Shown here: positions 16,136 through 46,972 of the stretch, piece by piece
Position numbering within the stretch: the stretch's first letter is position 1
Layout of the letters: each line of letters starts with the position of its first letter
Assembly: GCF_963506605.1 (NCBI RefSeq)
Contig: NC_083276.1
Location: 84,692,001 to 84,756,000 of the forward strand
Origin: Zootoca vivipara
Taxonomy: Eukaryota
DNA length: 64,000 bases
Reading direction: 5' to 3'
Notes under the pieces: model-generated
What the model was told of the DNA's origin: nothing
Databases searched by the model: none
Seen by the model: only the letters and a program-made list of their open reading frames with translations
Translations under genes and position numbers: made by a program

Positions 16136-19100
16136 CTAATACTCATCACCTTCCTCTTCTTCTCCTTCACCGTCTATACTATCTGTTCCCACTTCTTCAT
16201 AATCCTTCTCCAGGGCGGCCATGTCTTCTCGTGCCTCGGAGAACTCCCCTTCTTCCATGCCTTCCCCTACGTACCAGTGGACAAAAGCCCTCTTGGCATA
16301 CATCAGGTCGAACTTGTGGTCCAGGCGGGCCCAGGCCTCAGCAATGGCGGTGGTGTTGCTCAGCATGCACACTGCCCGCTGCACCTTGGCTAGGTCCCCA
16401 CCAGGAACCACAGTTGGGGGCTGGTAGTTGATGCCCACCTTGAAGCCTGTGGGGCACCAGTCTACAAACTGGATTGTCCGCTTTGTTTTAATGGTGGCAA
16501 TAGCAGCGTTGACATCCTTGGGCACCACATCACCTCGATACAACAGGCAGCAGGCCATGTATTTGCCATGGCGGGGATCACATTTCACCATCTGGTTAGC
16601 TGGCTCAAAGCAAGCATTGGTGATCTCCGATACAGAAAGCTGCTCATGATAGGCCTTCTCTGCAGAGATGACCGGGGCGTAAGTGGCCAGAGGGAAGTGG
16701 ATGCGAGGGTAGGGCACCAGGTTGGTCTGGAACTCCGTCAGGTCCACATTGAGCGCCCCATCAAAGCGAAGCGAGGCTGTGATGGAGGACACAATCTGGC
16801 CGATAAGGCGGTTGAGGTTTGTGTAAGTTGGGCGCTCGATGTCCAGGTTCCTGCGGCAGATATCATAGATGGCTTCATTGTCCACCATGAAGGCACAGTC
16901 TGAGTGCTCAAGGGTGGTGTGTGTGGTGAGGATGGAGTTGTAGGGCTCAACCACAGCTGTTGATATCTGAGGAGCTGGGTAAATGGAGAACTCCAGCTTG
17001 GACTTCTTGCCGTAGTCAACCGAGAGCCGTTCCATCAGCAGGGAGGTGAATCCTGAGCCAGTGCCTCCCCCAAAGCTGTGGAAGATGAGGAATCCCTGGA
17101 GTCCTGTGCATTGGTCAGCCTGTGGAATGCAGGAAACAAACCAAGCAATGGTCAGTTGGGGTTAGGGAATGGGGTGGAATAATGGGATAGAGTCCTCCAA
17201 AACTTTCTCAACCACTGCTTTATTTTCTCCCAATTCCGCCACAATCAAGTCTCTGCATTTCAGCATTAGAGTTTAGCCCTATTGCTGGCCAGTTGGGATG
17301 GATGAATTTGTTAACTTCCACTTCTCTCTGTCTCTAATTTCACCAGTTTTAGATTCAGTGAGGTTGCTGAATATTTTTTTTAAGTCCTCATGAAAATTCA
17401 CCAGCATTTTGGGCTGGATTGCTCCTAATATATGTTGCTTTGACTAACAGACACAATTTTTGGCAAGCTGCTTTTCCTAAACTATTGCATTTTTGTTCAC
17501 TGCTTTCACTAATGCATGCATTTTATGCACATTTCCCCCCTCATGTGTGCATTTTTGCACACATCATTTGGTTGCAGAACTGCAGCAGAAACTTCAGAGA
17601 AGTGTTTTGTTTTGGTTCATGCAGCGCGAATTAAACTGAACCAGATTTCCCCACCAATTGATCATCTGGGCAGTAGGAAGGATCTAAAATGTTTTCATTC
17701 CAGCAAAGGTGTGCTTGCTACATTACCTGTGGAGAATCGGTCCTCATGACAGACGGCCATTGTGTCACCATTGTAGGAGACTGGCTGTTGCATGAGCAGA
17801 GAAAGAGCCTCCCCCACAGGTCACTGTGCGCTCAAGTGTTCACAGTACCCAGGCTTGCTTAAACTCAGGCATCCAATATGGGCCTGCCCTCCACAACTTA
17901 TTTGGACAGGTGGTTGCGGCTGCCCACCTGTCAATCACATGATGTCAATACAAAGTCAGGTGATCCAAAGTTCAAGCTGCAAGACTGGTGATAAGCCTTT
18001 GCTTGCTCTTCAATAGTAAAAGGCTTGTCTTAGTTCTGTCACCTTCATTTTAGGGCTCATCCACACTTAGCTTTGCTCTGCATTTCTAAATACAGGNNNN
18101 NNNNNNNNNNNNNNNNNNNNNNNNNNNNNNNNNNNNNNNNNNNNNNNNNNNNNNNNNNNNNNNNNNNNNNNNNNNNNNNNNNNNNNNNNNNNNNNNNNNN
18201 NNNNNNNNNNNNNNNNNNNNNNNNNNNNNNNNNNNNNNTTGGAGCCAACAGCAATCCATGGCAAAATCTGAATTACTGTTTGTTCTGATTCAGCGGTAAA
18301 GATCAGGTTTTCCTGGGGAAAGCAGTGGGGCAGGGAAGCACTCAGACACAGACCAGGAAAATGTGGAACTGTGCCTAGAAAGCGTGGGGCAAAACTTAGG
18401 TGTGGATAAGCCTTCTGCACTATAGTTCCCTGAGTGAGGCAGTGGAAGCTGAACTTGTGCAGCATCAACACAAGCCACTCATTATCTCCCCTCCACGTTC
18501 ATTAACCAGAACTCCTTCCAGATTCCAGAAAGCAGATCCAGCCCCTTCCTGCCCCAGGTCTCTCACGCCCAATTACCAGCTTCCGGATCCTGTCCAGCAC
18601 CAAGTCAATGATCTCTTTGCCAATGGTGTAGTGCCCACGGGCGTAGTTGTTGGCAGCATCTTCCTTGCCAGTGATCAGCTGCTCTGGGTGGAAGAGCTGG
18701 CGGTACGTGCCAGTCCGAACCTCATCTGGATTGCAGAGCAAACAGCAGGTCAAGTCATTTCCTCTCCTCTCTTGTCTCCTAGCCTACTCTGCTGACAGAC
18801 CAAGATTGGATGGGGATTCGGTTTCAATAGCTGAGAGTATGATACGGGTTCAGCCCTGACCCGAGAACCTTTTCACCAAATTTAGAGAGTTCTCAGCTAG
18901 CCAATGTGCCACCATAGACATGCAGAGACATTGACCACACAGCAAGCACATTTCCCATAGAAAGCCACACTCCAAAGTCTTTGCTGTCTCCTGTTGACAT
19001 GCTGTGACAATATAGACAAATCTGGGAGGATGTTGCCATTTTAAATGCCCTTGTGTGGCAACACAAACTTGAAATGGGTTCCTAGCACCAAATTTGCCTG

Positions 19101-45900: not shown

Positions 45901-46972
45901 ATAGATATCTCTGCTGTATCTCAGGTCATAATAGTACAGTGCACTGTAGTCTGAGAGAAGCTAATACTTAGCAACAATTTCTTTTGCGTTCTCCCAACAG
46001 GCTGACCAATGCACAGGACTCCAGGGATTCCTAGTCTTCCACAGCTTTGGGGGAGGCACTGGCTCAGGATTCACCTCCCTGCTGATGGAACGGCTCTCGG
46101 TTGACTACGGCAAGAAGTCCAAGCTAGAATTTGCTATTTACCCAGCTCCTCAGATATCAACAGCTGTGGTTGAGCCCTACAACTCCATCCTCACCACACA
46201 CACCACCCTTGAGCACTCAGACTGTGCCTTCATGGTGGACAATGAAGCCATCTATGATATCTGCCGCAGGAACCTGGACATCGAGCGCCCAACTTACACA
46301 AACCTCAACCGCCTTATCAGCCAGATTGTGTCCTCCATCACAGCCTCGCTTCGCTTTGATGGGGCGCTCAATGTGGACCTGACGGAGTTCCAGACCAACC
46401 TGGTGCCCTACCCTCGCATCCACTTCCCTCTGGCCACTTACGCCCCGGTCATCTCTGCAGAGAAGGCCTATCATGAGCAGCTCTCTGTTTCAGAGATCAC
46501 CAATTCTTGCTTTGAGCCAGCTAACCAGATGGTGAAATGTGATCCCCGCCATGGCAAATACATGGCCTGCTGCCTGTTGTATCGAGGTGATGTGGTGCCC
46601 AAGGATGTCAACGCTGCTATTGCCGCCATAAAGACCAAGCGCAGCATCCAGTTTGTGGACTGGTGCCCCACAGGCTTCAAGGTGGGCATCAACTACCAGC
46701 CTCCCACTGCAGTCCCAGGCGGAGACCTAGCCAAGGTGCAGCGGGCAGTGTGCATGCTGAGCAACACCACCGCCATTGCTGAGGCCTGGGCCCGCCTGGA
46801 CCACAAGTTTGACCTGATGTATGCCAAGAGGGCTTTTGTCCACTGGTACGTAGGGGAAGGCATGGAAGAAGGGGAGTTCTCCGAGGCACGAGAAGACATG
46901 GCCGCCCTGGAGAAGGATTATGAAGAAGTGGGCATTGATTCATATGAGGATGAAGAGGAGGGAGAAGAGTAG
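38603..46972 (+). CDS. TUBA4A: Tubulin alpha-4A chain (448 aa)
   Basis: Exons 38603-38605 (ATG), 44214-44436, 45221-45369, 46001-46972, all GT-AG. Diagnostic [34 protein letters not shown] and tail [16 protein letters not shown] without terminal Tyr; convergent with STK16 as in mammals. Confidence 0.96.
40034..40123. mobile_element. Short hAT MITE (CATAGCTGCCAAGT family)
   Basis: Perfect TIR CATAGCTGCCAAGTT/AACTTGGCAGCTATG; same family as 52702-53045. Confidence 0.75.
41777..41911. mobile_element. Palindromic hAT MITE (same family as 12953)
   Basis: TIRs CAGGCACCCCCAAACTC/GAGTTTGGGGATGCCTG; TSD GTCTAAAG/GTCTAACG. Confidence 0.85.
43606..43835. mobile_element. Tigger/pogo-like MITE
   Basis: TA-CAGTTGTACCTTGG ... 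CCAAGGTACGCCTG-TA. Confidence 0.7.

Follow-up and report, generated by a model that had tools for sequence, protein, structure and literature searches.

The 64,000-nucleotide window analyzed here (Zootoca vivipara, assembly GCF_963506605.1, contig NC_083276.1, positions 84,692,001 to 84,756,000; coordinates below are those of the window) contains two complete α-tubulin genes, transcribed divergently in a head-to-head arrangement with start codons 17.4 kb apart, and this work concerns the patchwork resemblance of their coding exons. Gene A, of the TUBA1D/TUBA4B type, lies on the minus strand (16136..21169; exons 21169-21167, 19693-19471, 18725-18577 and 17119-16136) and encodes an intact protein of 452 amino acids whose tail ends in tyrosine. 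Gene B, which is TUBA4A, lies on the plus strand (38603..46972; exons 38603-38605, 44214-44436, 45221-45369 and 46001-46972) and encodes 448 amino acids, with a tail that lacks the terminal tyrosine. Both models follow from the open reading frames and the GT/AG intron ends. Putative TATA-like boxes were located in the DNA at 21255..21261 (minus) for gene A and, within a GC-rich stretch, at 38498..38503 (plus) for gene B. The 3′ untranslated region (UTR) of gene A extends over 16043..16135 (minus), with an AATAAA signal in the sequence at 16064-16059 and a transcript end placed by RNA reads near 16043-16047. This 3′ end is covered by 128, 2 and 18 reads from three RNA runs and by none from a fourth (contigs).

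The products and the neighbors of the two genes support these assignments. The best PDB match of exon 4 is 7rro_AA, "Tubulin alpha-1D chain", for gene A and 8ixf_I, "Tubulin alpha-4A chain", for gene B. Turtle proteins are 99% identical to the gene A product, and bird TBA4A/alpha-5 proteins are 97-98% identical to that of gene B. Gene B combines the tyrosine-less tail with M16, T50 and C54 and adjoins STK16, while gene A has the residues and tail of alpha-1D and lies head-to-head with TUBA4A, between it and DNAJB2. Mammalian TUBA1D is presumably the gene at the TUBA4B position. The synteny markers are STK16 exons downstream of gene B (50259..53951, minus; a weak Pfam Pkinase match, best PDB match STK16 with E 1e-32) and DNAJB2-like exons downstream of gene A (10646..11928, minus; Pfam DnaJ, best PDB match DnaJB2). 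The human gene order is given as STK16, TUBA4A, TUBA4B, DNAJB2 in the available text of PMC11818634, and since the neighbors match this order, gene A occupies the position of human TUBA4B. The latter is listed as a frameshifted duplicate of 241 amino acids (PMC8872073, available text). Gene A, by contrast, is intact and is transcribed.

The two genes share a homogenized core in exon 4 (codons 126-436), located at 16188..17119 (minus) in A and 46001..46932 (plus) in B and 96.9% identical between them. The 29 differences in 932 nt form seven replacement and 19 purely silent codons, and they are interrupted by identical tracts of 183, 163, 122, 119, 91 and 86 nt. The replacements (A/B) are I/V137, S/A170, G/S232, A/S294, T/A334, T/S340 and V/A362; we take these residues to lie in strands S4 and S5, helices H7, H9 and H10, and the H10-S9 and S9-S10 loops. 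An initial annotation of this stretch had reported about 29 differences, identical tracts longer than 150 nt, the same seven replacements, the same 19 silent codons, and I177 and S289 in both genes, and a recount returned all of these. It had also placed 18 of the 19 silent codons within about five codons of a replacement; that number is reached only at a distance of up to eight codons, with 16 of 19 at up to five.

Third codon positions in exon 4 differ at 21 of 35 within six short islands and at 1 of 275 elsewhere; the first figure is inflated because the islands were drawn around the observed differences. At 136-137 (46031..46036 plus; A, 17084-17089), V137 in B faces I137 in A and is accompanied by one silent change. 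At 167-170 (46124..46135 plus; A, 16985-16996), all four third positions differ, and A170 of B, facing S170 of A, appears to be derived in B. Codon 232 (46319..46321 plus; A, 16799-16801), S in B and G in A, is a lone mismatch flanked by the 183- and 163-nt identical tracts. The island at 286-294 (46481..46507 plus; A, 16613-16639) holds S294 in B and A294 in A, together with S289, which is present in both genes through different codons. Two replacements fall in the island at 334-344 (46625..46657 plus; A, 16463-16495), where B has A334 and S340 and A has T334 and T340. At 359-366 (46700..46723 plus; A, 16397-16420), seven of eight third positions differ around A362 of B, facing V362 of A and likewise apparently derived in B. 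Codon 395 (46808..46810 plus) is the sole silent difference outside the islands. G232 in A (16799-16802) and A334 in B (46624-46627) each lie on a codon-boundary CpG whose decay would produce the residue of the other gene, yet both are kept.

The genome holds 11 α-tubulin loci. Divergence per silent site in exon 4 is about 0.09-0.10 between A and B and 0.5-0.9 between either gene and the unlinked loci. At the same 275 tract third positions, at which A and B differ once, unlinked pairs differ at 93-157; at the same 35 island positions, the unlinked pairs differ at 14-24, against 21 in A/B. A Sawyer-type run test of A against B was significant both for the sum of squares of condensed fragments (SSCF; p = 0.0006) and for the longest run (p = 0.002). 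In within-genome trees, A pairs with B in all three exons (support 81/86, 95/99 and 99/99). The noncoding sequences behave differently from the exons: none of five comparisons (three introns, 1 kb downstream and 1 kb upstream) gave a blastn match in the same orientation at word size 7 and E 0.01, in agreement with the dissimilar introns and tails noted earlier. Because the noncoding sequence is unrelated and both gene types occur in other amniotes, the duplication is far older than the coding similarity implies.

The same exonic similarity might instead reflect duplication in the recent past, or very strong purifying selection at silent positions. α-Tubulins are indeed highly conserved, and codons 226-238 and 290-304 show few silent changes even in comparison with unlinked genes. 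However, the introns, UTRs and promoters of A and B are unrelated, both gene types are present in turtles, birds or mammals, and the unlinked paralogs show the many third-position differences given above. We therefore regard this explanation as exceedingly improbable.

Residue 177 provides an indication of the direction of transfer. Other species were compared at the protein level, using tables of 15 bird and 4 mammal TUBA4A-type, 4 turtle, 2 bat, 1 desman and 1 beaver records; chosen from 291 proteins on the basis of tail, signature or name, they include several isoforms or partial gene models, and the first-exon columns of two turtle records are misaligned. Both A and B of Zootoca encode I177 by the same codon (46154..46156 plus; A, 16964-16966), inside the 183-nt identical tract. 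Isoleucine is found in all four turtle A-type records, and valine in all 15 bird and all four mammal TUBA4A-type records, as well as in mammalian alpha-1D (7rro). Since alpha-1D has V and turtle A-type has I, the change to I177 probably took place on the reptile branch of gene A, and a later conversion probably carried it into B. S289 was set aside as proof of conversion: its codons differ in A and B, and two of the 15 bird TUBA4A proteins, as well as other paralogs, have it too. An excess of silent changes on the 5′ side of replacements (20 vs 12 over 12 sites, p = 0.22), a possible sign of directional or complementary DNA (cDNA)-mediated conversion, was rejected. A cDNA-mediated route also fits badly because the unlinked paralogs are not homogenized.

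The tracts could also be an artifact of assembly or polishing, in which the consensus of one gene was replaced by reads belonging to the other. The 1571 31-mers of 45700-47300 include 276 (17.6%) that are specific to B and cover 12 or more bases of a tract, so that false tracts would cap the share of words recovered from reads near 0.82. Four samples of an independent study gave shares of 0.92-0.95. Six runs from three further studies gave 0.60-0.83, which would fit an artifact but may also reflect limited coverage. The comparison leaves out runs X15-X20 (0.06-0.07) and four runs that possibly come from the source sample. In addition, the differences fall on residues common to other amniotes, and the pattern recurs in a second gene cluster, described below. 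On this indirect evidence, an artifact of this kind is very improbable.

The shorter exons are homogenized to a lesser degree, and their counts (34 differences in 223 nt in exon 2 and 11 in 149 nt in exon 3) agree with the initial annotation. Exon 2 (44214..44436 plus; partner 19471-19693) is the least homogenized, with a proportion of differing silent sites (pS) of 0.54, compared with 0.71-0.79 to unlinked genes on contig 2, and with seven replacements in 74 codons, including M16. Exon 3 (45221..45369 plus; partner 18577-18725) is partly homogenized, with two replacements and a pS of 0.27. Residues 80, 82 and 117 of B in exon 3 are those of gene A, unlike bird and mammal TUBA4A, and may represent older overwritten cases. 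The proposal that similarity scales with exon length failed: the 149-nt exon 3 is more alike than the 223-nt exon 2, and the 223-nt exons 2 of contig-2 genes show a pS of 0.02-0.10 where the proteins are identical, although the short intron 2 that those three genes also have in common extends their homology. Instead, the pS of exons 2, 3 and 4 (0.54, 0.27 and 0.10) tracks the density of replacements (7/74, 2/49 and 7/310 codons).

The distribution of the silent differences in exon 4 points to selection as the second ingredient. With rising distance from a replacement, silent divergence falls as 9/18, 6/19, 3/34, 0/60, 0/56 and 1/24, or 0.51, 0.32, 0.09, 0, 0 and 0.04 per silent site, being about zero beyond eight codons. 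Six unlinked control pairs are flat over the same distances, at about 0.35-1.0, and by this proxy the peaks do not result from mutation hot spots or relaxed constraint. Random placement would put about 4 silent changes within five codons (p < 1e-4). The ratio of replacement to silent differences is 7:19 in A/B; two unlinked pairs have ratios of 3:116 (Fisher p = 0.0002) and 6:107 (p = 0.003).

The age of the differences is the strongest point for selection. Gene A has I137, G232, T334 and T340, as does mammalian alpha-1D (7rro), and gene B has V137, S232, A334 and S340, as does mammalian alpha-4A (8ixf); S294 of B is present in 13 of 15 bird TUBA4A proteins. Because of this shared split (for 294, its presence in birds), 137, 232, 334, 340 and 294 appear to be old differences, while 170 and 362 appear to be younger. 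When the five old differences are taken as 137, 177, 232, 294 and 334, four survive, against about 11-25% of silent divergence (binomial p 0.0007-0.016).

Together, the run test, the contrast between tracts and islands, and the distance gradient support the view, already proposed from the sequence, that old paralogs have been homogenized by ectopic conversion. The accompanying idea that selection retains isotype residues stands insofar as divergence is kept around the replacements and five of the seven are old, 170 and 362 being younger. We consider it probable (about 0.8) that A and B are old head-to-head paralogs shaped by recurrent interlocus conversion together with divergence peaks kept by selection. 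Peaks of this type under interlocus gene conversion were reportedly described by Teshima and Innan in 2008.

We propose that repair of a double-strand break in one gene would use the partner 29 kb away as template. The conversion tracts would be short and confined to exons, because only the exons remain similar between A and B. Selection, acting in A or in B, would eliminate any tract that covers a protected codon, and the silent changes beside such a codon would be sheltered by it, aided by the need for a few matching bases at the ends of a tract. Replacements that are not protected would cross over, as I177 may have done from A to B. Exon 2 would remain divergent because its seven replacements leave little room for a harmless tract, and not because it is short.

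A neutral patchwork would account for the islands without selection. According to this alternative, a few recent tracts missed some patches, the mismatch-rich patches then resisted conversion, and replacements are found there only as all differences are. The random-placement result shows clustering only; a stricter test shuffles just the silent and replacement labels among the 26 differing codons. Toy forward simulations compared neutral, end-barrier, heteroduplex-rejection and selection models. Of the 3280 runs without selection, 857 reproduced the silent count, and at least four of the five old differences persisted in 2 of these. When selection was combined with mismatch rejection, the tracts came out as empty as observed in 3 of 62 and 12 of 43 runs; when it was combined with a 5-base end-homology rule, 29 of 30 runs took the observed shape. 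It is thus likely that selection holds the islands in place and that local mismatch adds to their sharpness. The sharpness required the end-homology rule, and islands 167-170 and 359-366 look self-reinforcing, which, with the borderline label shuffle given below, speaks for a neutral patchwork. Conversely, 137 and 232 stand almost alone, without surrounding mismatches that could act as a barrier, yet they match the mammalian alpha-1D/alpha-4A split; replacements are in excess among the surviving differences; and positions 232 and 340 also stay different in the separate contig-2 cluster. A purely neutral origin is accordingly unlikely.

Several observations weigh against conversion with selection-kept peaks. 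The label shuffle gave p = 0.08 at five codons and 0.03 at eight, and for the presence of a replacement in six of the seven difference clusters p was about 0.07; these values are borderline, so that the A/B pair by itself merely hints at selection. Selection alone produced the observed emptiness and sharpness in only 11 of 170 simulated runs, and the simulation parameters were picked by hand. The most saturated islands surround the young replacements 170 and 362, which this explanation does not account for, while the old 137 and 232 have one and zero silent neighbors. At 137, 232 and 334 the genes differ by G/A at potential CpG sites, where the same change could arise by mutation more than once. 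The comparison with other species is one of proteins, with turtle, bat, desman and beaver orthology taken from sequence and source names only. Turtle A-type carries S340, bird TUBA4A carries T334, and the apparent TUBA4B proteins of bat, desman and beaver have S232, A334 and S340. Finally, residue 232 has been set aside as a growth determinant because carriers of G and of S both grew straight in vitro (PMC10294638).

Some islands, notably the young ones at 170 and 362, might instead have been made in a single step, by micro-conversion from a third paralog or by multi-base mutation. Their silent changes would then be uninformative about long protection. Gene B matches a contig-7 paralog over about 10 bases at 167-170, that paralog has A170, S289, A334 and S340, and a Sawyer-type test of A or B against it gave p = 0.001-0.002 before correction for 28 pairs. 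However, a 10-base match is within chance, the TTT before GCT is the expected product of CpG decay, no donor for 359-366 was found among the nine other α-tubulin loci (six readable there), and the old sites are left unexplained. A search for third-gene donors of the islands yielded no convincing candidate. We judge single-step islands very unlikely.

The pattern is not limited to this pair. A four-gene cluster on contig 2 (C2:105180000-105285000; L002-L004, L006 and L023-L030), of the TUBA1A/1B/1C type by protein, is likewise homogenized (pS 0.02-0.21) and repeats the A/B pattern. Its silent changes abut G/S232, T/S340, S/T287, V/I68 and M/L302, and 11 of 56 silent columns lie within five codons of a replacement with the same split, where random placement predicts 1.5. 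Unlike A/B, this cluster comprises four genes and has a higher background of scattered silent differences (0.07-0.11), and three of its genes share a near-identical short intron 2 of 98-99 bases, which lengthens the homology. Two TUBA1C-like genes of the cluster face each other and have tail and 3′ UTR in common; one of them carries M302L. On contig 10, a tandem α-tubulin pair (C10:56669000-56695000; L008, L009) shows one silent and two replacement differences over codons 128-352, with clearly different exons 2 and introns, and is likely another case of conversion.

Both clusters are flanked by hedgehog and intermediate-filament genes (C1:84546776-85356189; C2:105100719-105302411), as duplicated blocks would be; we presume that the tubulin blocks go back to the two rounds of vertebrate genome duplication (2R). 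In each cluster, a G232/T340 gene is head-to-head with an S232/S340 gene. It is conceivable, although we find it doubtful, that the vertebrate α-tubulin body carries a two-state switch, G232/T340 versus S232/S340, that predates the duplication of the TUBA1 and TUBA4 clusters. Each cluster would then keep a head-to-head G/T and S/S gene, both codons having been shielded from ongoing conversion over hundreds of millions of years. When the genes are matched by their place relative to the flanking genes, however, G/T in one cluster corresponds to S/S in the other, which leaves a shared origin of the two states unproven.

The initial annotation had regarded the islands as a map of functionally important TUBA4A positions, which is an overstatement. 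A170 and A362 are absent from all 15 bird and all four mammal TUBA4A-type proteins, and A334 from all 15 bird proteins. M16, the sole body residue of alpha-4A shown to matter in vitro and necessary for curved growth (PMC10294638), is not among the seven exon 4 sites; it is retained in B within exon 2, the most conversion-resistant exon. The available text on alpha-4A lattices describes them as contracted and assigns no residue (PMC10577476). Because of the absence of A170 and A362 elsewhere, T334 in birds, S340 in the turtle A-type, the position of M16 in exon 2 and protection that possibly acts via gene A, the seven sites are not a TUBA4A-only map of function. The last point comes from mammals: the bat and desman TUBA4B-type proteins additionally have M16, T50 and C54. 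The bat, desman and beaver proteins (P0084, P0127, P0031 and P0192), which are predicted gene models, look like mosaics of A-type and TUBA4A-type sequence, with signs of decay in bat. Such mosaics suggest that protection lapses once the A-type gene decays, and hence partly acts through gene A.

The general pattern is known, and the A/B pair is well explained by it. Divergence peaks under conversion are reviewed in PMC3924837 and applied in PMC2588116, with red/green opsin, RHD/RHCE and Drosophila CG18281/CG17637 as cases in the available text. As in these, A and B are linked duplicates with low background divergence and local peaks centered on amino acid differences common across species. Unlike them, as far as those texts describe, the A/B introns are unalignable, conversion takes place inside exons, the peaks are 1-11 codons wide instead of about 200 bases or a whole exon, and the protected differences seem to reach back to the amniote ancestor rather than over tens of millions of years. 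That ancestor lived about 300 million years ago. The mechanism is feasible for this very gene pair: after Cas9 had cut human TUBA4A, 40 of 96 clones carried a repair with the neighboring TUBA4B as template (bioRxiv 10.1101/2021.12.16.472942). That event was induced, in somatic cultured cells, the available text contains no evolutionary analysis, and human TUBA4B is listed as frameshifted, unlike gene A. Leishmania β-tubulin paralogs are also under concerted evolution, with homogenized coding and distinct noncoding sequence; the abstract mentions no protected residue islands and attributes divergence to regulation, not to protein structure (PMC1533823). In the literature searched, in which older chicken, Xenopus and fish tubulin-cluster papers and subscription journals are poorly covered, we found no account of natural conversion between TUBA4A and TUBA4B/TUBA1D, and nothing on gene conversion between TUBA1A and TUBA1B.

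Two further features of the window lie outside the tubulin genes. Copies of a single short interspersed nuclear element (SINE)-like repeat, 81-92% alike, are present at 36665-37034, 48765-49106, 14556-14792, 63865-64000 and 1-123, some between A and B and others outside them. A stop-free frame of 553 codons at 854-2515 (minus), rich in Tyr, Ser and Pro and with repeated SPxYE-like motifs, lies downstream of the DNAJB2-like exons on the same strand. It gave no Pfam match and no usable Atlas match, and is possibly the long last exon of a diverged DNAJB gene.

A practical caution is that DNA trees of TUBA4A exon 4 and short-read mapping are confounded by the neighboring gene. The long-standing question addressed here is whether the few body differences of α-tubulin isotypes matter, which the ordinary ratio of replacement to silent substitution rates (dN/dS) cannot answer. 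If the two-state switch were real, the conversion islands would chart, from genome data and at base resolution, where isotype function resides beyond the C-terminal tail. Human TUBA4B would then be what remains of a conserved alpha-1D isotype that TUBA4A overwrites when selection no longer acts. Conversion itself acts as a natural swap experiment, in which the survivors 137, 232, 334 and 340, with the exon 2 set that includes M16, are ranked candidates for recombinant-tubulin tests, and the overwritten residues (177, and probably 80, 82 and 117) are natural negative controls.

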